Assembly: GCA_012026655.1 (NCBI GenBank)
Contig: JAAILG010000235.1
Coordinates: 1 to 64,000, forward strand
Reading direction: 5' to 3'
Origin: Hydrolagus affinis
Taxonomy: Eukaryota
Length of the DNA: 64,000 nucleotides
The notes under the pieces were generated by a model. That model was not told where the DNA came from. It did not search any database and worked only from the letters and a program-made list of their open reading frames with translations. The position numbers and the translations under genes are program-made. Each line of letters starts with the position of its first letter. Position 1 is the first letter of the stretch. Shown here piece after piece: positions 6,051 through 45,300 of the stretch.

Positions 6051-6361
6051 CATCGCTCCATGTATTTTTTAAAATCTACGACGTTCACTGTTGCTCTAAG
6101 TTTCCCCTAAAAGCAAATACACATTTCATCGCAATCCGACACTTCAGCAAATATCTCCCACCACTTGTTATTGAGCCTTTTTTTATATACCTTTATCGGT
6201 GTTAATGAGACACATACACAAATACCCCGGATATGGGCGTGCCACTGGGTGCTAATGAGTGCTTACAAGTTTCATTAAACAGAACCACAGAACATAGCCG
6301 CTTGACAATGTTTGGCAACGTTCGGAAGCTATTGCATAATCTTCGTCTGGGCTGCAAGGAG

Positions 6362-6528
6362 TTAATATTTCCCTCCCTTTATAGGAGGCAGCTGGCAAAC
6401 TGAAGGGGGTTTGTACCAGTCTTTCAATTTAACTTTCTTTGCCATCAGAGACACACAGATGGAAACCCAGTTGTAAAGATAATGGGCTAGAACTGAGCCC
6501 TCCTTCCATGCGTCCGAATACGTGATTT
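6362..6528 (-). CDS. EFCAB5: EFCAB5 last coding exon (ITYSDAWKEGSVLAHYLYNWVSIC...GGKY*)
   Basis: cctgttttctag acceptor in phase 1, TAA stop at 6364-6362. Confidence 0.88.
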
Positions 6529-9500
6529 CTAGAAAACAGGGAAAATTAGCAGAATGAGATAATAATAATAATAACAATCCTTGCATTCGATCTAGCCATT
6601 TTCACGTCTTCTATACGTCTCAAAGTGCTTCACAGAATATACTGTAAAGCGAATTGACTGTATATTTGTGGGCAAGACGCGGCAGCCAATTGCGCACAGC
6701 GGTGTCCCACAAACAGTTGTGGATTGAAATTACCAATTTGTTATTATTTTATTGGAGGGGTTATTATTAGGCGTGTGTGTGGAGTAAGGAAACTTGTCCA
6801 AAGTTTCGCCCTGAATTGCCTGGATTCAAACACAGGTCTCACGCTTGTAAGGCGAGTGCTCTAACCACTGGCGCTTCAAGACTTCACGTGATCAATTTAT
6901 TATTGTTTTACAGCTGGAAATCATTTGTAACCTTAGCTACATATATGGTCACTTATAAATACCCAGTCACCACACTTTATAGAAACTTTGTGAAGCGTTA
7001 CGAGACTTCTTGACATTAAAGGTGCCGTGTCAAAAGCTTATTTATTGTTATCCACATTATAGTACAGTAGTTTGAGACACATTGATAAAATGTGGAATAA
7101 AACTAAATAATGTGGCATAATGTGTCAGCTAGTTGATTTATTTTGTATTCAGACGATTTGTATGAGTCTGTGAGTCTTTCAAGACACTATTTGAACCCAT
7201 CAAATGCAAGGATTACTTCCTACTGAACCTTCTCTCTGTCTCGTGCAAATCAGTTCTGTACACACTATGCGCTGGCAAATGACAGTGAGAAGAAAGCTGG
7301 TTGTAAAAAATCTTTGGCAAGTGAGAATCAATCATGAGTACATGGTGCTAAATGGTGGATCAGCTCTGCAATCTAACATTAGCGTACAGCTAACATACAG
7401 TTTATTGGTAAATGTGCATAAATCACTTAGGGTTTAAAATTTCCAGTATCACACGATAACAAAAGCCTGAGTAAATTCACTGCTCATCAAGTGATGCATA
7501 GCACCCCACATGTTCAGACAATGTTATTACACGCGTAGTTCAACAGTGAATTTGAGACTAGATTACCGGTGTAATGGGTTTTCTTTACACCCGCAAAATA
7601 CACAGTCACTTCACTTTACAGTATATTCTGTGAAGCGCTTTATAATAATAATCGTTGCTTTTGATATAGCGCTTTTCACGTCTGCTAGATGTCTCAAAGC
7701 GCTTCACAGAATATACTGTAAAGTGAATTGACTGTATATTTGTGGGCAAAACACAGCAGCCAGTTGCACATAGCAGTGTCCCACAAACAGTCTTGGATTG
7801 AAATGACCAATTTGATTATTGAGACGCTTTGAGATGTGTCAATGACTTGATCAGGCGCTATTATCTGATGCAAGGATTCTATTTATTAATCTTTTCAGTT
7901 CAGAGCGAGCCTTCCTGCCCGTATACTCCATATCAGCAGGAGTGGGAACTGGGAACAATTCAAAATAATTATTTACAGGGCAAACATGGATAATTTGTTT
8001 GCTCCTCACTCGAACGAATTGCAAGCCGCTATCTCGTCGTGGCTGAGACCAGTTAACTCAGCGCTGACTTGTAGTCGAATGATCATGTGCTATATCAGTG
8101 TCTTAACCTACTCAGGGATCGGGAGGGTTAGAAGATCTCATGCAGACTTACTTTGTAGCTGTTCTCCCACAACAAAACGGTCAACTGTCAGATTCGATGC
8201 AGTGGGGTCAAATTTGACAATCTGTTCAATAAATTTATCGTCCAGTTTCTGCAAAGAGAGGAAAACTTTCATTAGCATTTAATCATACCTCCAACCTGTC
8301 CCCAACTAGAAAAGAACTGCAAGACTGTACTCAACCAATCAATCAATCAATCAATCAATCCTTACATTTATATAGCGCCTTTCACGTCAAGAGGACGTCC
8401 AAAGGCGTTGCTTGAGATATTGTCATAAATTAATCAAGCTGATTAGCATTACAAAATCAGTACTGGATCTCCCTTTTCTTATCAATAACAACTTGAACTT
8501 ATATAGTGCCCTCCCCAACCCTGGATCAGAGTCAGGCTCCATCCCTCTGAGGCGCTATCCAGCCTGGAGGGTGTTATATAAGTGCAAGTTGTCGTTGTCA
8601 GTGGTGGTTAGTGAGTGTCTGCTCATGTTTAACAGGTTCCGGACTCCAAATTCCCCTGTGTGTGGCTGGCAGACTTGGATTTTTTTTTTAACCTGTTTGC
8701 ATTTTTCCCAGGTGAATTTAGCTTTCCATTTCGGTTCAATGAGGAGCAGGACTGCGGTGATGATTTTCTGGATCGCCAGCGGAGGCCGGTTGTAATCCTT
8801 GATCTTTTCAATTAACTCCGGATCGAGCCGTTGGATGTTTTTCCTCAGGTCCATTAGCATGCAACGCTCAAACATAATCTTGATTCGCTTCTGTACGTGT
8901 TTCTCTTCGGCCTCTAAAAAATGAACAAACAATTAAAGAGGAAAAAAAAAACGCAGAATGTGAATCCGTTAGAACGAATGCATCCTAACTTGACCTGTTC
9001 CCCACATTTATCTTAATCCCCACTAACAGCTAAAGTAAAATATGCCTCAACCACAGTTGCAGGAAAGGAGAACCCAATTCCTGACAACCAATTTGATCAA
9101 TGTAGCAAGTATAAAGCACAATATATGCATAATAATACAATGTCAATAGGAATTAAAACATTAAAAAATATCGCCTGTACAGTATTAGTATTTGTATATA
9201 GTGTCCTTCATGTCAGAAGGCTGTCTCAAAGTGCTTCGCAGGTTACAACAACGACAACAGAATTACATTTATAGAGCGCCCTTCACATCAGGAGGACGTC
9301 CCAAGGCCCTGAATAATTAGGGGGCCCGAGCGGGGGGGTGGGGGAGGAGGGGAGGGTAGGAGTAGGGGGAAGGGGAAGGAGAGTAGGAAGAGTTACGAGG
9401 GGAGCAGAAGGCACGGTCGAAGAGAAAGATCTTAAGACCGGCCTTGAAGGAGGAAAGGGAGGAAGTGAGGCGAAGAGATTGCAGGATGGAGTTACACTGT

Positions 9501-12500
9501 AAAGCGTAGAGACCATGTATTGTTTTTTTGCAGACAAAAGTCTACAGGTTGCGTCAGGTATGGGGCTCCAGAAGGATTGATTTGAGTTCAAGATGTCTGC
9601 CATCTGCCAGAAACAGTTGAAATTTGACGCTCATTCATACTTCTATCATTTTGTTATACGCTTAAAATGTGAGCCGGAACAATGTCCCCGGTTAGGTTAG
9701 GAATGCTCTAGGACGGCTAGTTAACCCACTTGAACAACAACAATAAAATTACACTTGTAGAGCGTCTTACGTGTAGGGAGGATGTCCCAAGGTGCTGAAC
9801 ATTCAGAGGTCAGGATCCGAGCATGTGGTGGTGGTGTAGCGGGGGGGGGGGGGCAGGGTTGGGATGAGGGAGGGCAACTGAAGGCACGGTCAAAGAGGAA
9901 AGTCTTGAGACCAGTCCTGAAGGAGGCAGGAGAGGGACCAAGGCAAAGGGATTGTGGGATGGAGTTCCAAAGCGTGGGGGCAGAGAGGCTAAAGGCCTGG
10001 CCGCCAATGGTAGGGTAGGTCGGGCGGGGGACATAGAATAAGACGGAGCATACTGAATGGAGGGAGTGGACAGGTTGATTAGGGGTTCAGCAGGTCATGA
10101 GAGGTACGAGGGGGTAAAGCCCCGGAGAGCCTTGAAAGTGAGGACAAGGATTTTGAATTCGAGTGAAGGGTGCTCTTTAAATGCAAGTTGTTGTAGTTGA
10201 GTAGGAATCAATATCCGATACCTAAAACTAAGACTCTTGAGTTGGGATCATCAATCTCCTTCAATATCTCCAGCGTAGACTTCTGAAGTATTTCCAACAT
10301 TTTAAACATGTTCCTGCATTCAAGCTCCGTCATCTCTCTTTGGCTTCCAAGGTTAATGACAATGACAGCAAAAGCTTTCGCTTCCAAGTTCCGAAGAGGC
10401 ACAACGATGAGCAGTTCTTCTTTTACCACAGTTATGATCTGCTCAGAAAACGCCGCACATTTAAAGAGGTAGTCTCTGTAGGGATGTGAAAGGAGGACAG
10501 CACTGAGGAAATGCGCCAAACAGCCAGATTAAATGGTCTCTTTCTACAAGGTATATTTCATCATTTGCTTCACTGATATGCTTGTGCATACAGTTCGCGT
10601 TATCGTCACATCTGTATAACTAAAAGCTTTGTATTATTGTTTCACAATGTTGTCCAGCTTAGAGAAACCCAGGCAAAGAGCCACGATCTTATAGAAGGGC
10701 GGAACAGGCTTGAGGGACCGAATGGCCTCTTCCTGTTTTCATGTTTCGATTAGATAGCAACTATGCCTCTGGGACTTTGAACCCCGACTCCCAACTCATA
10801 CACCTGAAACAACCAAAAGAGTGAACTTCCAATCACAGGTAAGGTTTGTAGATTTGTTCCATACTCTGAGTTTCGGGAATGGAATTTGGACTTGTCCAAA
10901 AGAAGTCCCTTTCAGCTGGTCTAAACCATCCATACTTTAAGTCATGTAAAGCCAGAGCAGAACTTTACTGTCTTACCAACCTGAACAGATTGTCCTTCCT
11001 TTTCAGTATAATTGGAGTCGTGTGCACGTCTACGGTTCCTTTGACATTATCTGCTGTCATACTCTTCTGCAATATGAACTCCTTTGGGTATGGGAAAGAG
11101 AGGGGTTAGCTGAGAGGAACGTGGTTGATGATTGCACTATACCAGCTAGCTCCCTCGGTCATTGGAACCAGAGTTTTAAGCATCACGATTTTCCCCCCTA
11201 AGATGTAAGAATGGAACTCAATCACCAGCTTAGAAGCTCCAGCGGTTGAGTAATGTACCAGAGCTGCCTTCAGTGAGGTTCTGTGAGTTTCAATTGCTCC
11301 CTTAATAATACTCAGATTTAGATCCCTAATAAGAGGTTTTAACAGATGAGGACTTGATGTACAGGCGTTCATCCTCAATCAATCTTACCCAATTTAGCAG
11401 ACGTGAAGTTGACTAATACACTGAGAAAAGGTATGTTGAAGGGAGTACCTTAGGACTAACACAGTCAACGAAGTACAGATTGAGAGATTTGATGGTGGTT
11501 GACCTTTGATGGATCCAGGACAACGCAGCTTCCAAAACTTGCAGAACGCTCCTCTGGGTTTGCACATAATGGTAGGCAATACTAAATGCTTTGGTGACGC
11601 CCTGAAGAATAAATTCCAAAAAGTGACTGTGAATTTTTAGCATCAAACATTATACAGTACCCTTGTGTGCACTGCATGCTTTGCTCAGCACAGTGATACA
11701 GTCTGTGGTACCCCCTGTGTTAAAACATTGTCATTGCCATTAGCCTCTTGGTACCAAATTCTGTACCAGGATTCAAATGCAGTAGAAGAGCATATTAACA
11801 AAACAGCTGGACTTCAATTTTGCCTCCAGGACAGCAGATAATAATAATAATGCCTGAATTTGGTACAGTTCCTTATCATTGAGACATCTCAAAGCACTTC
11901 ACAGAATGTATTGTAAAGTGAATTGGCTGTTTATTTTGTGAGCGAAACCCGGCAGCCAATTGTGTGCAGCATTATCCCACAAACAGTCGTAGATTGAGTG
12001 ACCAATTTATTATTATTTTTTTTTGAAAGGGATGATTTCGTCGGCCAAGTTCTGGGGTGGGGGGGTGGGGGGGGTGGGGGGGGCGGGTAGGAGGAGTGGG
12101 GTGGTGGGGTGGTGGGGGGGAGGGAGAATGGCCTAATTATCAAACTTCTAAATTACCAGCGTGTCACCTCGTAACACATTTTGTGTAATACTGCAGTTAT
12201 TAAATGGTGAAAATTCCACACAGGAACCTGACCTCAGCCTCACCTGGTAAAAGTTGATCTCATGATTCATGAAGACCTTATCCTTACAGGGGTCTCTAAT
12301 CGTGTCAATCGCCAAGATTCCAAACACTCTCCTATTCAAATCTTTTATTGGGATCACAATGAAGGCACCTTCTACTTTTTCCCGTTTGCAGTTCCAACTG
12401 TGGACACCTCCATGATCCTGAATTCGGGGAATATAGATTGTTTTCCCTTCGTCAACTGCATGAAAGCTGGGTTTAAAAAATAAGCGGGGAAAAAAAAAAA

Positions 12501-15500
12501 CACAAATTTATTTTGACCGTAGATACTTTAAGAGATAAATTGACAGACTGAATTTACACGCCATGAAATGCAAAGAAAATGTTTCCTTCAGGTTCCTAAT
12601 AGAATTGGAGGTGAGGCACATATCGAAACCAAAGCAGAAGTGTTTTCGGAATAGTGACACTTGAATAATTAACGTGAAAAATATTTTCAGAAATAGTCGC
12701 AAACTTTCTGATCCATAAGACAGAAAGGGCTTCCGTGAAGGGTGAGATACAAGCCAGAGTCAGAAGAGATGAAGCTGGACAAGATTTCACGATCAAGCCG
12801 AGTGTGGCCATGGGAGATTTTTAAATTGGAGAAAATAATAATAATCCTTGCATTTGATGTAGCGCCTTATCACATTATTACTCTCCCCAGAAAGCAATTG
12901 GCCAATCGTCTAACAACTGTGTTACTACTTACTGCTAGCTAAATAGAGGCATCTGGAGGAAGGCAACTTGCCTAAGGTTTCGTCCTGCCAATCTGTGGAG
13001 AATTTAAGGCTTGGTGGGACTTGGCAAGGTTGGGCTGTAGGATGTGTTGAGCAAATAGATACCACCCAACTCAATCAGCTCCTCACAATTTTGTATCAGA
13101 AATGAAGAAACAAAGGGAAGGAGAAAGGAGCCAGGTGTCAAGCAGGAGGAAGTTGGAATTGCTCCTTTGAATCGAGATGCAAGAGAAAGATTTCGACCCA
13201 AAGCACTACTGGAAGCAATTGCGTTTGCAGTAAAATAGAGTTTCTCTCTCTCTCTCTCTCACCTTACAGTTCGTTCATTTCTATAGAGTCCCTGGTTCAG
13301 GATCAGGTTTGCATCTTCCACAGTGCAGGCGACGTAATGGAGGAAAGTGTCACCCTTTTCTGGCTTGTGATAGTTATGCTTTAAAAAAGCTATTGAAGAA
13401 CTGATCTTCTTATTATCACCGTGACCTTCTACATCCTGTTCCAGAGATAAAGTCTGTGTTAAAAGCTCGAACTGACATTGGCAGTGAAACTCTTTAGTGC
13501 AGCTGGGCCTAAAGATTACACTTAAGCCAGTACCTCAGGTTTCGAGCAGGGAAAGGAACATCCATATGCTTATTTATGGTGATAGTAATGCGCAAGGCCA
13601 GGGTGAATAATCTGAGAAACGTGTTTCACTCTCTGAAAATGATGCCGTGTTAAGATAGCAATTAAAGTAGGACACAAAGTCTTTTCAGCTGGATTCGGAG
13701 CAGAATTCGACGGAGGGAGATATTTCAAAGATCTTAAACCCGTTGTTTCATACGGAATACAATTTATAAAAACAATAGTAATCATTGCATTTGATACAAC
13801 GGCTGATCACGTCTTCGGGACGTCTCAAAGCATTTCACTGGATATACTGTAAAGTGAATTGGCTGTATAATTTGTGATCGCCAGTAACAGCAGAGAGGAA
13901 TCTAGGCCTTTGTGGCATTTTAACTAAATTCCAGATCGTCTTAGACACAGGCTAACACTACAAAGCATCATACCTTATAAAGACACTCGAAAACAGCTTT
14001 ATAAACAGGACCCATGCTGGCACCTCCGAGCCGTGCTGCTTCTTTGATAGAGTAAAGCCATTTCCTCCTGGCGCTGGCCCGTGCCTCATTATGGCACGAT
14101 TGTGAAGAGCTGGTCGACAGAAATTGCACAATGCTGTCAAATGCCTCTTCATCATCGGCGATTTCATTAACGATGGCTTCAATGTACGACCTGAACTCCT
14201 GTTTGGTCAAAACAGTTTCCCCACTCCGGCATTTCTGGTTCATATTCAGTCTGATGTGAGCTGTTAAAATAGAGTCACACAACGTAACAAAGCACTACAC
14301 GCAGCTCCATTTCTCTCGACCTCATAATCCGAGCAATTTTTAAACAATGAAAGTTAAATGCTTCCCTCGTTTTTTTTCTCCTGGAAATATAGTGCTTTTC
14401 ATCTGCTGTCATCTTGATTGAATTATTTATATTGAATTGTTTGAAGCCAAGTATTTGTCCAAAGCTTAAGAAGAATAATAATGATAATAATCCTTCCATT
14501 TGATATAACAACAACAACTTTGATTTATATAGTGCCCTCCACGCTGGACGGCGTCTCAGAGCGCTTTATAGTGCTTTTCATGTTGGGAGGATCATAACTG
14601 TGTCAAAGCATTACACAACTTATCGTAAAGTGTATGAGACACTATGTATCTTCTATACTATGTGGAGCTCCTGTAGCTAGGGGTTAGAGCACTCGCCTTA
14701 CAAGCGTGAGACCTGGGTTGGAATCCAGGCAGATCAGGGCAAAACCTTGGGCAAGTTGCCTTACTCTGCACGCCTAATAATATTCCCTCCAGATAAAACC
14801 ACAATAATAAAAATTAGTCATTTCAATCCACAACTGTTTGTGGGACACTGCTCTGTGCAATTGGCTGCCGAGTTTCACCCACAAATATACAGTCAATTCA
14901 CTTTACAGTATATTCTGTAAAGCGCTTTGAGACATCGATAAGATGTGAAAAGCGCTACATCAAATGCAAGGATTATTATTATTTATTATTATCTGGTAAG
15001 CCTATTTGCGCACAGACAGCCGTGAAGTGAATGATCGATTTTACCTGGGTATTTATTCTCTAGAAAAACTCCCTTTGCTTTTCAATAGTGCTACAGGATC
15101 TTTAAACGACTACCTGAGCAGGTGGAGGGGACCTCCATTTATATCTCATTCAAAGGACACCACCTAGTAAATGGCAGAGTTCTCCCAACATTGCACTTGA
15201 GCGCAGCCTAGCTTTTGAGCTCAAAGAGCCTAACCTTACCTCACCCCAAAAGCTGCTGAGACCCTGGTCCATGCCTTTGTCACCTCTGGGCTGGACTATT
15301 GCAACGCCCTCCTCTCCAATCTCCCCTCCATCACAATCCACAAAATCCAGCTAATCCAAAACTCTGCCGCCCGCATACTCACCCACTCCAAGCTTCGCTC
15401 CCCCATTACCCCAGTCCTTGCCAGACTTCACTGGCTCCCTATCCCAGAGAGGGTCGACTTCAAGATCCTCACCCTTGTTTTCAAATCCCTCCACTCCTCT

Positions 15501-18500: not shown

Positions 18501-21500
18501 CAAGGCTTTGCCTTGCCGGGAACCAAACCCAGGTCTCTCGCTTGCAAGGCGAGTGTTCTGACCACTGAGCTACAGGACTCCACAATATGGACTCTGCATT
18601 GTTGTAGAATAAATTTACTGTTGGAGAGGTAAGGCAGATACTAAATTTACTAAGGCCAGAGGTTGGGTTGTGTTGAGGGGAAGAGTAAGTGATGTATGAT
18701 TGTTTATTGTCCCCCTTACTGATCTTTGCGCGCAAGGACGTTTTTTTTTCGGAGTTAGTACATTCATTGGTCTTAAATAGAGGTTTCCATGATGGGGGAA
18801 AAATTGCCCTTGGATTAGTAATTCCCCCGATCAGTCAAGAAGTATTGCACGAAGATTATTTCCTCAACCAGTAAGTCAATGAGTCGGCTTTAAAATTACT
18901 GAAACATTCCTTGCACTCAATCCTTATAAGGGAAAATTTGGCATTCCAACCTTAGGGGACTAGTGGCAATATTTCAACGATGCATTAGGCCACCTCTAGA
19001 GGGTGTACGTAGTAAAATTAGTAAAATAATTCCAACCATAGCAAAGTTTCTGGCAAAAATAAAAGCATGTTGGTTCAGTTTCACCTACCTTTCCTTAAGG
19101 CATTCTTCTCCATTCCGTCCTTATATTTGGTCAAGGTTGTGGCCAGTTCTGGCATGTCAATGAAGCCCGACTCATCGAGATCCAACTTCTGAAACAATGA
19201 GTCCAGGACAATCTTGTGCTTGTTTGACAATTTGTTGTTCTTGGCCTGAGAACACAAGCGGAGATCGTGAAAGGCTACTGTGCAACCGAGGAAACCCACA
19301 AAAAAAGGACGGGACAGTTTTGCACTTTATCGTAGAAACTCCAACACAGAACGAGGATAGTCAGATAGAAAGAGGATAATAATAATACTCAGAAGGAAAC
19401 ACCTTTGAGCTCCTGTGGCTCAGTGGTTAGAGCACTTGTCTTGCAAGCTGGGGAGACCTGTGTTCGAATCCAGGCAGGTCAGGGCGAAACCTTGGAGAAG
19501 TTTCCTTACTCCACACGCCTAATAATAATCCCCCCCCAAAAAACGCAATAATAAAATTGGTCATTTCAATCCACGACTGTTTGTGAGGGACACTGCTGTG
19601 CGCCATTGGCTGCCGCGATTCGCCCACAAATATATACAGTCAATTCACTTTACAGTCAATTTGGTGAAGCGCTTTGGGACGTTGATAAGATGTGGAAAGC
19701 ACTATATCAAATGCAAGGATTATTATTATTATATTATATTTGATGAATCTTTGCGCACAAAATCGTCAATTCACTTTACAGTATATATTCTGTGAAGTGC
19801 TTTGAGACGTCTAGCAGACGTGATAAGGTGCTACATCAAATGTAAAGATTATTATTGTAATCATTCTTAACATTATCGTCAGCCCACTGAGCCTATGCCA
19901 GTGTTAAATCTACCAATGGAGCTCTCCACTCTAATCCCAATTCTGGACTCTTTTCCCATAGTCGTTCTTAAGTTGTTCTCTTCAAATATTTATTAAATGT
20001 ACAAACACATGAATGCCGTTAACCACCTCGGATCATAGGGAAATAAAGTTTGGTTTGGGGAAGCGTCACTGAGAGGAGAATAACTCTTAGAAGTCAAAAG
20101 CTTTGACTCTCGTGTGTTTACATTGTGTTGCTGAGCTTGAAACTCATATAACTGCACTAAAACTCCGCTGACCTGATCAATGGAGGGGTTGGAGGGGGTG
20201 GGGTGAGAGGGAGTGGTGGGGTGTGGGTTGGACCCAGTCAAGTCTAATTGTAATTAGAATAAAAATCCTAACATTTGATATAATGTCTCATGATGTCTTC
20301 GAGACGTCTCGAAGCGCTTCACAGAGTATACCGCAAAGCAAATTAACCGTATATTTTGTGAGGCTAAGCCACGCTTGAATCTGCAAGTAGAAGACAGTGG
20401 ATAAGCTGTATTGTGTTCGCGGGATCCAAACCGAGTTGAGGCCGTTAATTTTTTCGGAGTGGGGCAGGCCGAAATCTGCACACAACCGTTCTTGCAGGAA
20501 TTTCTTTTAATTTCTCTGTTTCATGCACGGTCTGGTTTGATGTGAATTGCGGATACTAGGAGTCTGGTGAGCCAAGTGTTTACTGCATATACACAATAGA
20601 TATATAAAAAAATGATAAAATTGGTCATTTTCAATCCACGATTGTTTGTGGGAACACTGCTGTACGCAATTGGCTGCCACATTCTGCCCACAAATATACA
20701 GTCGAATATATACTGTAATATACTTTACAGTATATTCTGTGAAGAGCTTTGAGATGTCTAGAAGACATAAAAATCACTATATCAAATGCAAGATTATTAT
20801 TATTATTATTACAGATGGACTGGAGCTTGATATCCTTTTGATTGAATTTGCAATGATCCCTTGACACATTTATTGGGTAACTGGATTTCTCAAAGACAAG
20901 AAGTGAATGTTAATGAACTCTGAAGTGAGTTTTGTCAGTTCTAAATGATTTATGTCCTTGCTAAGGGTCCCCCTTTTGCAAGACTGTCCTTGAGTAATGG
21001 GGATTATATCAGTACCCAAGTATACATAAGAGGTCCATTGATCATTGCAAGGGCTATGGGAGCATCTGAAATCCATCCTGCAGTGTTTCAATAAAGCTAA
21101 TCATTAATGTTTTCTCAGTCGAAATCTCAGTCAGTTTCTAGCTCACAAGGCCATTCGGCTTTGAGTTGAGAGACTTCACAGTAATAATAATAATAATCCT
21201 TACATTTGATATAGCGCCTTTCACATCGTCTACACGTCTCAAAGCGCTTCACAGAACATACGGTAAAGTGAATTGACTGTACACTTGTGGGTGACAGTGT
21301 TAAGTACCTATGCCCCTCTCCTATTTTTGCCCAAATGTATACTTTTTTTGTGTCTTGCCACAGTTGTTGAAACTGCTCATTTATGCTGTAGGAAAATTGG
21401 CATCTAAGAGGCAAAAAAAAGATGAAAGTAACTGCAATCGGTGTGACATTTCAATGTTCTAAGCACTATATCTTAATGCAATCCAAGACTGTTTGTGGGA

Positions 21501-36500: not shown

Positions 36501-37463
36501 AGCATGTAAAGGATTTACAAATACATTTTTTGGCTATGAGAGGCTGAGTAAATATAGACTGTATACTCCCAATACAATAACAATTTTCATGAGCGCCGCT
36601 CATGTCGGGAAATCGTCCAAAGATGGGTGTTGGGTTAAGAAGAGGCCTAGTTTCCACTGTGATGCTAACTATGGTGAAACTGCCCACCAACAATCATTGT
36701 CCTCAAATGGATAGGTCTAATGGTCACTTTGTTAGCCTACCTCCCCCTCCCTCTCATTGTCAGACTCTGCCTCATTGTGAAGGGCGCTATATAAATGCAA
36801 GTCGAGGTTGATGTCAGCTGGATGTCAGCCAATTCCAGCGAAGCTGAACCCCAACACTCAGAACCTTTAGGGGGGGAGAAATTGGAATAACACTGACCTG
36901 TTATCCTTGATGTCGACAACATGATCTCTCAAGTCCTCCAGCACTTGTTTCAAGCCACGCATATAGGGAGATGTTTCCGGAAAGTTACAGTGATGAGGAT
37001 TATTCCTCATTAGTTGCCGTGCTAAGAAATTAATTGGGTTAAAGTATGGATGTGGCTTCTCCACCACTGTCAAATTATTTTGTCTAACTTCTATTAACAG
37101 CCTCTCCAGGCTTACAATCAGAGCAGGCAACAAGTTTTCCAATGCATACAGACGAGCGTGCACTGTCAATTTATTTTCATTGAACCAATCCCTTGTCAAC
37201 AAATCTATTGGGATTCTCTTCTCTATTATAGCCTTTTCTTCTTTGTAAAGGTGTGCAATGTATTTTTTCTTTGCCTGCAAATAATTGACCCGCCTTTGTA
37301 CTTTACGATTAAACTTTTTCTTCCAAAGCATTTGACTTGATGAGGTTAGGTTTTCACTTTCTAAATTGATATCTAGTCCGTCAAGTTCTGAAACTTGAAA
37401 AGAAGGTCTTCTACTTTCAGAGGATTCAGATGAAGAATCAAGTTTTTGTCGCCTCATAGACAT
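6362..37463 (-). CDS. EFCAB5: EF-hand calcium-binding domain-containing protein 5, spliced CDS, 19 coding exons, ~1183 aa
   Basis: Exon peptides match remembered vertebrate EFCAB5 motifs (FNPINFLARQLMRNNP, LRNPREWP, LDLDESGFID, ARRKWL, VDEGK, FGILAIDTIRDP, HEINFYQGV, RDYLFKC, WEKCK, FDPTA, LYNWVSIC). All junctions are GT-AG and phases chain to a multiple of 3. Head-to-head with SSH2, as in other vertebrates. Confidence 0.93.
6560..6872 (-). mobile_element. tRNA-derived SINE, near full length
   Basis: tRNA-like head, Deu-like core GTTTGTGGGACAC..GCTGTGCGCAATTGGCTGCC, L2-like tail plus (ATT)n. Confidence 0.85.
7590..7885. mobile_element. Nested SINE fragments: a minus-strand copy (~7641-7818) interrupting a plus-strand tail
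   Basis: The plus tail stops at gaagcgcttt (7640) and resumes cgctttgagat... at ~7825. Confidence 0.75.
8152..8248 (-). CDS. EFCAB5: EFCAB5 coding exon 18 (KLDDKFIEQIVKFDPTASN...EQLQ); not in the ORF track
   Basis: ctctctttgcag acceptor, A|gtaagt donor, phase 0->1; FDPTA motif. Confidence 0.88.
8332..8359. repeat. (CAAT)n microsatellite, tail of an L2-type fragment
   Basis: Read directly. Confidence 0.8.
8693..8913 (-). CDS. EFCAB5: EFCAB5 coding exon 17 (AEEKHVQ...RPPLAIQKIITAV...WEKCKQ)
   Basis: tttttag acceptor, CAG|gttaaa donor, phase 1->0. Confidence 0.88.
9245..10165 (-). mobile_element. Two L2 3' fragments (~9245-9490 and ~9733-10165)
   Basis: (AAC)n-aattac..agagcgcc..cgtcccaagg tails and purine-rich antisense ORF2 ends. 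Confidence 0.8.
10222..10475 (-). CDS. EFCAB5: EFCAB5 coding exon 16 (DYLFKC...IVVPLR...RVLVL)
   Basis: ccctacag acceptor, TAG|gtatcg donor, phase 2->1. Confidence 0.88.
10685..10746 (+). mobile_element. CR1-type 3' tail fragment
   Basis: gatcttatagaagggcggaacaggcttgagggaccgaatggcctcttcctgt. Confidence 0.65.
10981..11081 (-). CDS. EFCAB5: EFCAB5 coding exon 15 (EFILQKSMTADNVKG...RKDNLFR); not in the ORF track
   Basis: Manual translation; CAG|gttggt donor, phase 0->2. Confidence 0.82.
11449..11601 (-). CDS. EFCAB5: EFCAB5 coding exon 14 (GVTKAFSIAYHYV...DCVSPK)
   Basis: attcttcag acceptor, AAG|gtactc donor, phase 0->0. Confidence 0.88.
12244..12466 (-). CDS. EFCAB5: EFCAB5 coding exon 13 (FHAVDEGKTIYIPRIQ...HEINFYQ), GAF-like region
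   Basis: acccag acceptor, CAG|gtgagg donor, phase 2->0. Confidence 0.9.
13263..13435 (-). CDS. EFCAB5: EFCAB5 coding exon 12 (DVEGHGDNKKISS...YVACTVEDA...); not in the ORF track
   Basis: Manual translation resembles mammalian DAEAHGNKKISAH...VACTLDDA; AAG|gtgaga donor, phase 0->2. Confidence 0.88.
13974..14260 (-). CDS. EFCAB5: EFCAB5 coding exon 11 (AHIRLNM...ARRKWL...FECLYK)
   Basis: attttaacag acceptor, AAG|gtatga donor, phase 1->0. Confidence 0.9.
14664..14991 (+). mobile_element. tRNA-derived SINE, full length
   Basis: GGAGCTCCTGTAGCT..GGTTAGAGCACTCGCCTTACAAGCG head with A/B boxes, core, tail ...AAATGCAAGGATTATTATT. Confidence 0.88.
14995..15225 (-). mobile_element. Older Deu-domain SINE fragment (SacSINE1/AmnSINE1-like)
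   Basis: Minus strand ctaggctg..cagtgca..ggtgtcctttgaatgagatataaatggaggtccc..ctcaggt..aaagatcctgtagcactattgaa resembles the remembered Deu central domain. Confidence 0.65.
15226..15851 (+). mobile_element. L2-clade LINE 3' end (ORF2 C-terminus remnant, 3'UTR, (GTT)n tail)
   Basis: Encodes ETLVHAFVTSGLDYCNALL..KIQLIQNSAARILT..ITPVLARLHWLP..RVDFKIL, typical of the L2 RT C-terminus. Confidence 0.9.
16288..16598 (-). mobile_element. tRNA-derived SINE, near full length
   Basis: Reverse-complement match to 14664-14991. Confidence 0.88.
18275..18582 (-). mobile_element. tRNA-derived SINE, near full length
   Basis: Same family; head ends ...accactgagctacaggactcc on the + strand. Confidence 0.87.
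19089..19245 (-). CDS. EFCAB5: EFCAB5 coding exon 10 containing the EF-hand loop DLDESGFIDMPE
   Basis: tgtgttctcag acceptor, AAG|gtaggt donor, phase 0->1; canonical D-x-D-x-S-G-x-I-D-x-x-E loop. Confidence 0.9.
19407..19856 (+). mobile_element. tRNA-derived SINE (19407-19737) followed by a second tail fragment (~19765-19856)
   Basis: gagctcctgtggctcagtggttagagcac head, core, two tails. Confidence 0.87.
20255..21900. mobile_element. Cluster of 5'-truncated SINE copies in both orientations (~20255-20360 -, 20615-20810 +, 21182-21292 -, 21478-21635 +, 21850-21898 +)
   Basis: Shared tail GAAGCGCTTTGAGACGTC..GTGAAAAGCGCTATATCAAATGCAAGG. Similar fragments at ~28-192, 445-695, 3630, 5275-5580, 11838, 13780, 24080, 24855, 26910, 27625, 30003, 31213, 45830, 49765, 50138, 63520. 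Confidence 0.8.
21927..22141 (-). CDS. EFCAB5: EFCAB5 coding exon 9 (ELKPLMHAIQ...EERLARFTQ)
   Basis: tttgtacag acceptor, CAG|gtaaat donor, phase 1->0. Confidence 0.88.
22784..22834 (-). CDS. EFCAB5: EFCAB5 coding exon 8 (AMSPMVPEAILTPGNL), symmetric 51-nt exon
   Basis: gtgttatttcag acceptor, TAG|gtaatt donor, open frame, phase 1->1; no homology support. Confidence 0.6.
23045..23180 (+). mobile_element. Degenerate copy of the Penelope-like element
   Basis: ggtcttggacctgaaccgtgaactcactttcctctctccatagatgctgcc...tttcagatt...ctgcagta. Confidence 0.6.
23343..23690 (-). CDS. EFCAB5: EFCAB5 coding exon 7 (WPVLDLAEL..., acidic low-complexity); donor position uncertain (23343 or 23406)
   Basis: ttttcactag acceptor in phase 1; two candidate phase-1 GT donors. 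Confidence 0.75.
24545..24644 (-). CDS. EFCAB5: EFCAB5 coding exon 6 (GGALNRKMMLQLFENLYDNSSSKVKNQLRNPRE); not in the ORF track
   Basis: Manual translation; tttctctgtag acceptor, T|gtgagt donor; joins the next exon to give conserved NPREWP. Confidence 0.88.
26520..26675 (-). CDS. EFCAB5: EFCAB5 coding exon 5 (YLYGYMN...LFSSCDIGK)
   Basis: ttttcccctcag acceptor, AAG|gtcagt donor, phase 0->0. Confidence 0.88.
34114..34187 (-). CDS. EFCAB5: EFCAB5 coding exon 4 (IEFAKEMEETDTTSKSIDGQEFTE)
   Basis: ttttatgtag acceptor, GAG|gtgaga donor, phase 1->0. Confidence 0.85.
35243..35294 (-). CDS. EFCAB5: EFCAB5 coding exon 3 (VQNFLTSFLDHLAESFQ)
   Basis: ttttctctttag acceptor, AAG|gtaagg donor, phase 0->1. 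Confidence 0.85.
35881..36037 (-). CDS. EFCAB5: EFCAB5 coding exon 2 (LAKLKIETK...GTLKLAV)
   Basis: cgcag acceptor, GTG|gtaaaa donor, phase 2->0. Confidence 0.88.
36898..37463 (-). CDS. EFCAB5: EFCAB5 coding exon 1 (MSMRRQKL...VVDIKDNR); the exon starts at acceptor 37480 with 17 nt of 5'UTR
   Basis: Acceptor ttttatttcag, in-frame TAA just upstream of accATG, donor CAG|gtcagt (phase 2). Confidence 0.9.
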
Positions 37464-44560: not shown

Positions 44561-45300
44561 GCTTGGTTGACAAGCCGTGGGCTCTCTCCTCCCCCCCCCG
44601 GCCTCTCTCCACCATGAAACGTCCTCCTCCGCCGTGGGCACGCACATGCGCACTGGCGCCGCCCCGCTCGAGCCAGTGAGTCAGTTGAAGAGCGAACGAA
44701 CGAGCGCGCGAGTGACTGACTGAGTGACTGAGGGAGCGGGCGGCAACCGTCGGTTCCCCTTATCCATTCACCGCAAACAATCGGGGAGTGGTGGGGTGGG
44801 GGGTAAAAGAGAGCTGACGCTAAGGAAGAAGCAGCGAGACGTTTCATCTCTCGCTCTCCTGAGGAGAATGAAATCTGTATCCCTCGGAGCTCCATAGATG
44901 GCTCTAGTAACGGTCCAGCGGTCGCCGACGCCGAGTACAACCTCCAGCCCCTGCGTCTCGGTGAGGCATTTTCTTATTCTCTCTCTGTCTGTCTCTATTT
45001 GTCTGTCTCTAGTCAACTTGGTTCCTGTTTGTGTCGCGCGCGAACGCTCGTCCGCCGGCCGGCAAAGGCACAAGAAAAGCGCATGCGCCACTTCTTCCTC
45101 CTCTTTCTTCCCCCACCCCCGTCGCTAGCGTCCATATAAGGGCATACTCACGTGATTACATAGGCTTCACGGGCTGGGGTGAGGGGGGTTGAGCTCGGTT
45201 TGAAAAATAACCGTTAAACCGTCAGTTCCCCCACCCATCCCGTTTAATTGAAGTATACGTGAGTCGAAGCGGGTTTTATTTATTTATTGCCGACGGTAAA
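44560..45300. promoter_or_regulatory. CpG-island-like SSH2 promoter/5' region with NRF1-like sites (44642-44652; perfect GCGCATGCGC 45079-45088) and E-box TCACGTGA (45148-45155)
   Basis: High local GC and CpG density compared with the AT-rich, CpG-poor flanks; motifs read directly. Confidence 0.7.
44898..44960 (+). CDS. SSH2: Protein phosphatase Slingshot homolog 2, first coding exon (MALVTVQRSPTPSTTSSPCVS); remainder lies beyond the window
   Basis: Near-identical to the remembered SSH2 N-terminus (SSH1 differs: MALVTLQRSPTPSAASS); 63-nt coding exon followed by gtgagg donor; adjacent to EFCAB5. Confidence 0.92.

Follow-up and report, generated by a model that had tools for sequence, protein, structure and literature searches.

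The C-terminal domain of EFCAB5 in Hydrolagus affinis, a predicted motor-less homologue of the dynein microtubule-binding domain

The microtubule-binding domain (MTBD) of dynein heavy chains (middle of PF12777; 3ERR, 5AYH, 6KJO, 6RZB, 8I3J) is usually treated as a part of the dynein motor only. EFCAB5 is known from the radial spokes of sperm; in bull sperm it was located to the stalk of radial spoke 3 (RS3), where its DPY30 motif pairs with AK7 on CFAP91, and was found to bind RGS22 of the RS2 head, giving rise to the RS2-RS3 bridge (PMC11779644). The RS3/bridge location was shown in bull and mouse (PMC11779644, PMC12423330), Efcab5-null mice display reduced motility and no hyperactivation-type increase in bend (PMC12423330), and loss of Rgs22 abolishes the bridge (PMC13443885). 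Here, the EFCAB5 gene was analysed in a 64,000-nucleotide stretch of Hydrolagus affinis DNA (assembly GCA_012026655.1, contig JAAILG010000235.1, positions 1 to 64,000 of the forward strand), hereafter called the window, and the last domain of its predicted product was identified, by profile and model comparison, as almost certainly a homologue of the dynein MTBD.

EFCAB5 ends in three minus-strand coding exons, 8913-8693, 8248-8152 and 6528-6362 (221, 97 and 167 nucleotides, stop codon included), whose outer coordinates, 6362..8913, had been placed exactly in the original prediction made for this DNA. The two introns between these exons and the one upstream are all of the GT..AG type, the third-last exon is entered in phase 1 and left in phase 0, and the joined exons give an open frame of 160 residues with a single terminal stop. 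With helices labelled via alignment to a model of the shark orthologue, the third-last exon encodes a short CC1-like helix, MTBD-like helix 1 (H1), the PP loop and helices 2 and 3 with a conserved W; the second-last exon, corresponding to residues 267-305 of the Callorhinchus milii protein P0058, encodes helix 4, a conserved F/Y-D-P loop and helix 5; and the last exon encodes helix 6, a conserved S, a CC2-like helix with a W, and a short tail. Four sequencing runs were aligned to the EFCAB5 exons, of which only one yielded a contig across them, while one raw run had no depth there. This contig, from a related organism (approximately 85-88% alike; RNA by guess), covers parts of the upstream exon (10222-10478), the third-last exon (8696-8879) and the last exon (6249-6522); the two gaps between these aligned pieces measure 34 and 106 letters, precisely the numbers of exon bases that the gene model places there, so that the three exons are joined in exact register. 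The closest relative found was Callorhinchus EFCAB5 (P0058), 69% identical over 137 domain residues and encoded by the same exons; all 7 genome matches of P0058 fell inside the window, so no second copy was seen. As read from the sequence, the exons belong to a single EFCAB5 gene encoding a Dpy-30/EF-hand/GAF protein of approximately 1,400 residues, and the domain, which had been described as stand-alone, is instead the last of this protein, directly behind a GAF domain. A pseudogene or mis-splicing was rejected on the grounds of the open joined frame, the related-organism contig and the Callorhinchus orthologue on the same exons, and a fragment of a dynein gene was rejected since both tblastn and the mapping of P0058 give EFCAB5 exons.

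The dynein anchor residues listed in the original prediction are present in the joined exons. Searched alone, exon 8913-8693 retrieved four dynein MTBDs among five PDB matches, but at E-values of 0.06-1.7, and against longer proteins it gave 95 candidates with none at E<=0.001; Pfam searches of ten single window exons detected no MT domain, and only the EF-hand neared its cut-off. A profile (A1) built from 16 EFCAB5 C-termini and free of dynein sequences retrieved bovine EFCAB5 first and then the yeast MTBD 6kio (E 2.9e-9), the alignment running co-linearly over profile positions 18-129 and helices 1-6, with dyneins making up most of the 60 rows shown; a deeper alignment (A3) matched the dynein MTBD at E 1.2e-13. 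The joined window domain scored 125.5 bits on the EFCAB5 family profile and 48.8 bits on an MT-type profile, a score reached by none of 2,000 shuffles (1,680 reported, best 10.2), although this control is partly circular as the 20 repeats in the MT-type profile were first found with the EFCAB5 profile. Over 85 rows, conservation of the W, D-P, S and PP positions is 90% or more. Pfam 38.1 names the domain PF28481 EFCAB5_C, and the description and clan of that entry may already note a likeness to dynein.

Fold models were made from the shark and Callorhinchus orthologues. The AlphaFold model of the shark domain (85 rows; predicted local distance difference test score 92.4) consists of eight helices in the order CC1-H1..H6-CC2 and, in a search of 48,161 chains, matched the mouse dynein MTBD (3err/5ayh) with a Z of 16.7 and a root-mean-square deviation (rmsd) of 2.0 Å over 132 aligned residues, in agreement with the structural comparison that had been proposed as a check. 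Ranks 1-11 of this search all have the MTBD fold and the first unrelated row follows at Z 6.1. Foldseek E-values were modest (best dynein 9.8e-4), and the Callorhinchus model aligned with 5ayh at Z 14.2 (rmsd 2.8, 136 aligned). A small helical bundle that had converged on the dynein fold, or motifs that matched by chance, would fit the identity to dynein of only 12-21%, the intrusion of a designed helical protein among the A1 profile matches at E 9.3e-7, and the behaviour of the Pfam MT family (PF12777; gathering cut-off 24 bits), which gave no match in the three window exons, found 2 of the 16 EFCAB5 family members with a best E of 0.039, below the cut-off, and placed none of its 55 genome matches at the EFCAB5 locus, so that the proposed check against this family came out negative. 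However, convergence or chance was rejected, and is very improbable, in view of the co-linear H1-H6 match at E 2.9e-9 to 1.2e-13 and of the gap between Z 16.7 and Z 6.1 for the first unrelated fold; language-model features, which fell into MT clusters for 28 of 30 matches with a recognition value below the threshold of the tool, point weakly in the same direction. The profile and model comparisons thus uphold the originally proposed homology, and the EFCAB5 C-terminal domain is almost certainly related by descent to the dynein MTBD.

EFCAB5 and the dynein MTBD share a six-helix head between two stalk helices, with a PP loop after H1, a W at H3, an F/Y-D loop and an S and a W in H6/CC2. In contrast to dynein, EFCAB5 has no AAA ring, a GAF domain preceding the MTBD-like domain and a stop codon following it; the stalk-like helices of the Callorhinchus GAF+domain model (200-221 and 312-337) are only approximately 22 and 26 residues long; the dynein CC1 proline was found at its place in none of 86 rows and two places earlier in 14 of them; and the domain stays below the Pfam MT cut-off. 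A Walker A motif was absent from all five named or reference EFCAB5 proteins and its pattern matched 1 of 66 proteins of at least 700 residues among the matches listed, so the description of the protein as motor-less holds. The Callorhinchus GAF+domain model has a predicted template modelling score of 0.88, which suggests that the two domains form a fixed unit, and its GAF fold resembles, for example, the PDE6 GAF (Z 10.9). This model aligned with residues 1136-1498 of bovine EFCAB5 (chain 9fqr_Xl) at Z 27.2 over 338 residues, an agreement that loses force as the bovine model was probably itself built from AlphaFold and is not independent. In the copy of the PDB sequence file used, this 1,509-residue chain carries the label 'A-kinase anchoring protein 14', apparently through a label mix-up.

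The fish protein is an orthologue of mammalian EFCAB5, with which it shares the order Dpy-30, EF-hand, GAF and then EFCAB5_C, but it is without the mammalian insertion between H1 and H2. It had been suggested that in mammals an insertion replaces the PP motif and hides the homology. The insertion is real, comprising approximately 19 residues in the bovine chain, but the PP pair is retained within it; two mammal-like rows are without PP, and the Tasmanian devil has a longer repeat insertion. Nor is the homology hidden, since the MTBD-like domain, included in the deposited bovine spoke model (residues 1336-1494), aligns with the shark domain model at Z 14.8.

A second spoke protein showed the same fold. 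Residues 452-591 of Chlamydomonas RSP2 (7jtk_C) aligned with the MTBD-like domain at Z 12.6 (rmsd 3.2, 136 aligned), RSP2 ranked second in Foldseek (E 1.6e-4), a GAF match was located at 101-334 (Z 9.6), and a Dpy-30 motif is also present, giving the order Dpy-30, GAF, MTBD-like as in EFCAB5. The shared fold in the models and the shared order of domains suggest that EFCAB5 is the spoke-3 counterpart of RSP2. Counting against this, the RSP2 domain matches only weakly in sequence (E 0.42) and its GAF and MTBD-like domains are placed differently relative to each other (rmsd 30 over both); in addition, one GAF fold was seen in RSP2, and RSP2 lies at the RS1/RS2 neck/head (7JTK/7JRJ) whereas EFCAB5 lies in RS3. 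A Z of 12.6 comes close to values that chance alone can give for helical bundles; the three-domain order agrees nonetheless. The extra C-terminal part of RSP2 extends to the surface of the spoke head, and mammalian DYDC proteins are without this long part (PMC10774353); they measure 159-177 residues and have neither the GAF nor the MTBD-like domain. The Pygsuia protein P0185, in which a DYDC1-like N-terminus (E 2.2e-12) is fused directly to an MTBD-like domain with no GAF between them, is a possible link between DYDC, RSP2 and EFCAB5. Algal RSP17, described as a 98.5 kDa stalk protein with a GAF domain (PMC3383722), might on this description be the algal EFCAB5 orthologue.

The EFCAB5 domain profile retrieved 605 representatives at E<=0.001. 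Counts of its spread rest on 150 of these, 66 of which have at least 700 residues; among these long matches listed, the EFCAB5 Dpy-30 region was detected by profile in 54 and some N-terminal part in 61, superseding a strict Dpy-30 pattern that had found only 25. Named carriers (20 were looked up) include Polychytrium, Allomyces, Synchytrium, Chromosphaera, Cyanophora, Gloeochaete, Ploeotia and Pygsuia. Proteins of the Dpy-30/GAF/MTBD-like layout are found in chytrids, glaucophytes and a euglenid, a distribution that takes in what we consider several eukaryotic supergroups; the domain itself has been retained from chytrids through to mammals. In a quick tree (116 rows, 122 columns, two dyneins, Chlamydomonas RSP2 itself left out, branch support only by the Shimodaira-Hasegawa-like approximate likelihood ratio test, SH-aLRT), EFCAB5/RSP2-type domains were split from dynein and the tandem MT repeats with 97% SH-aLRT support, and two DYDC/RSP2-type rows fell on the EFCAB5 side of this branch. 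The tree loosely supports the EFCAB5/RSP2-type domains as a separate, old lineage.

Several other proteins with MTBD-like domains were encountered. P0057, P0100, P0135, P0182 and P0186 contain three to five MTBD repeats in tandem, which score above the Pfam MT cut-off, and showed no further Pfam family; such tandem-repeat proteins group with dynein in the quick tree and not with EFCAB5. In the Pinctada protein P0119, a KY-like transglutaminase and an Ig domain stand ahead of three MTBD-like repeats that are nearly identical, and P0179 and P0180 carry a hydrophobic, membrane-anchor-like stretch ahead of the domain. In Trypanosoma brucei, residues 137-417 of the axonemal chain 9e5c_2e (507 modelled residues) match the domain with a large insertion (Z 9.4, rmsd 2.3, 136 aligned).

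In the yeast MTBD, salt bridges to tubulin are made by K3117, E3122, R3124, R3152, R3159 and R3201 in H1, H3 and H6 (PMC7042235), and these contact residues were mapped onto EFCAB5 through the A1-6kio alignment. At the six places the window reads P, K, K, E, D and E, so that most of the dynein contacts are changed: only one is kept (R3124 as K) and four charges are reversed. For comparison within the family, 86 rows were grouped by names and similarity into 11 vertebrate-like, 26 invertebrate-like and 49 other, mostly non-animal, rows, a grouping in which the tree puts six of the 'other' rows with animals and in which the window row is mis-framed in helix 6. K/R3201 is kept in none of the vertebrate-like, at least 4 of the invertebrate-like and 36 of the other rows, and the median core charges of the three groups are +2, -1 and +13, respectively. 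Judged by these residues, fungi and protists seem to have an intact tubulin face and vertebrates an eroded one, which is not decisive, and tubulin binding may be ancestral since the non-animal members keep the basic face.

By analogy with the mammalian protein, the interpretation moderately favoured for this fish is that the domain serves as a rigid module for protein contacts within the sperm RS3 bridge rather than as a grip on tubulin. The microtubule tether that had been envisaged is not supported for vertebrates, EFCAB5 being a known RS3 bridge protein (PMC11779644) whose binding to RGS22 is Ca2+-independent (PMC12423330), and most tubulin contacts being lost in the window copy; such a function is unproven and, in vertebrates, doubtful. 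A number of observations pull the other way. The window has a K/R one place before R3201, as is common in the family, and a one-residue shift in H6 would raise the kept contacts to two of six; E3122 is kept in 5/11 vertebrate-like, 24/26 invertebrate-like and 43/49 other rows, and K/R3124 in 11/11, 23/26 and 39/49, respectively. The contact-residue test is moreover a soft one, because positions K3117 and E3122 are variable among the true dyneins of this genome too, and Dictyostelium dynein is without the H3 arginines (PMC7042235). The Toxoplasma chain 9ya2_L has a motor-less MTBD-like fold on a microtubule surface (Z 11.4, rmsd 2.8, 122 aligned; 12% identity); it is an intraconoidal microtubule protein, likely ICMAP2, judging by its residue range of 1207-1457 and the 162 of 1,678 residues resolved, and sits between protofilaments as a dimer with an 8-nm repeat (PMC12819142). 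In the passages of that article dynein is named only in a reference title, and its domain figure may say more.

Two other explanations were weighed on this evidence. That the domain still grips tubulin via helices 1 and 6, in vertebrates too, as a static, motor-less contact whose affinity is possibly tuned by the GAF domain and which might act, for example, at the central pair or in spoke transport and assembly, is rather unlikely. The complete H1-H6 fold of the models, the E and K/R of H1 that most of the family keeps, the K/R3201 and core charge of the 'other' rows, the microtubule-bound Toxoplasma fold and the position of the RSP2 C-terminal part at the spoke head surface would suit such a grip, but the four charge reversals in the window copy, the low core charges of the vertebrate-like and invertebrate-like rows and the mammalian insertions at H1-H2 do not, and from the bridge there would be no stalk to reach the lattice. 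The shark model is also closer to the low-affinity MTBD (6kjo, Z 16.1) than to the high-affinity one (6kjn, Z 13.0), which may only reflect an AlphaFold default. A prediction of the Callorhinchus domain in complex with N-terminally incomplete alpha- and beta-tubulin, for which no alignment was used, scored 0.00 twice and provides no evidence either way. It is unlikely, too, that the domain has become in animals a structural relic, degenerating and with little function, while in fungi and protists its basic face engages glutamylated tubulin tails or some acidic partner other than tubulin. The charge split between the row groups, the long branches and insertions in vertebrates, the mammalian DYDC proteins without the long RSP2 C-terminal part and the only mild subfertility of Efcab5-null mice (PMC12423330) are consistent with a relic; set against it are the conservation of the W, D-P, S and PP positions, the retention of the domain from chytrids to mammals and the identity between the window and Callorhinchus.

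As a protein-contact module, fish EFCAB5 would do as the mammalian protein does, docking on CFAP91 through a Dpy-30 motif paired with AK7 and binding RGS22 in the RS2 head. The GAF and MTBD-like domains would together form a rigid end-piece of the RS2-RS3 strut that limits spoke tilting, and the former tubulin face would meet a spoke protein. EFCAB5 and RSP2, the latter with its truncated mammalian relatives DYDC1/2, would descend from one old Dpy-30/GAF/MTBD-like spoke protein, the MTBD-like domain of which may once have bound tubulin. A further-reaching proposal, which we consider quite improbable, is that since the last eukaryotic common ancestor the spokes have carried a motor-less sister of the microtubule foot of dynein, coupled to a GAF sensor, through which RSP2 and EFCAB5 make direct, ligand-gated contact with tubulin of the central pair or a doublet, and that in mammals this foot was later cut away from RS1/RS2 (DYDC) and reshaped in RS3; if true, it would supply a missing physical link in spoke signalling.

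The MTBD fold would, in this interpretation of EFCAB5 and RSP2, be present in two structurally solved radial-spoke proteins, and RS3's EFCAB5 would be connected with RS1/RS2's RSP2/DYDC, although RS3 proteins have been described as distinct from those of RS1/RS2 (PMC11779644). The otherwise unexplained EFCAB5_C would gain an ancestry and a surface to mutate, in a protein tied to mouse sperm hyperactivation, and the orthologue-like proteins of chytrids, glaucophytes and a euglenid suggest that this 'sperm-specific' bridge protein is ancient. No publication linking EFCAB5 or RSP2 to the MTBD was found, but some figures and supplements of spoke structures might name the fold. The passages of PMC11779644 and PMC12423330 give the location and knockout of EFCAB5 and not the ancestry of its domain; 'MTBD' is absent from five supplementary files of PMC11779644, and the fold may still be named in Extended Data Fig. 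5c or in supplementary file 1 of that article. Passages mentioning EFCAB5, dynein and a microtubule-binding domain together concern dynein f, and the passages of a mouse RS3 preprint (bioRxiv 2025.05.19.654877) do not mention EFCAB5.

Upstream of the MTBD-like domain, the remaining parts of the gene lie in order on the minus strand along 37.4-6.4 kb by tblastn, with EFCAB5_C last. An exon with the EFCAB5-type Dpy-30 docking motif (36882..37400, ends approximate) matches residues 103-255 of bovine chain 9fqr_Xl at E 8.4e-22 and also 22 proteins, mostly named EFCAB5 or EF-hand proteins. The EF-hand exon was located by tblastn at 19084..19263 (ends approximate) and, with an E of 6.4e-6 for EF-hand_5, came just short of the cut-off. 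Exons for the first GAF domain and for the helical region ahead of it were placed at 12166..14261 (ends approximate) by tblastn with shark and amphioxus EFCAB5, Pfam GAF being matched on residues 1168-1252 of P0002, and the second GAF domain, the one ahead of the MTBD-like domain, corresponds to residues 18-194 of P0058 and occupies 10222..11625 in exons at approximately 11625-11449, 11090-10980 and 10489-10222. A highly abundant short interspersed repeat, with copies at 6568-6870, 7600-7870, 11860-12000 and 12830-12880, fills the introns and dominates read depth. A plus-strand open reading frame at 44898-45128 beginning MALVTVQ lies head-to-head with EFCAB5 in a GC-rich stretch at 44-46 kb and is presumably the start of the slingshot phosphatase gene SSH2, an identity that we assume along with the corresponding human synteny.

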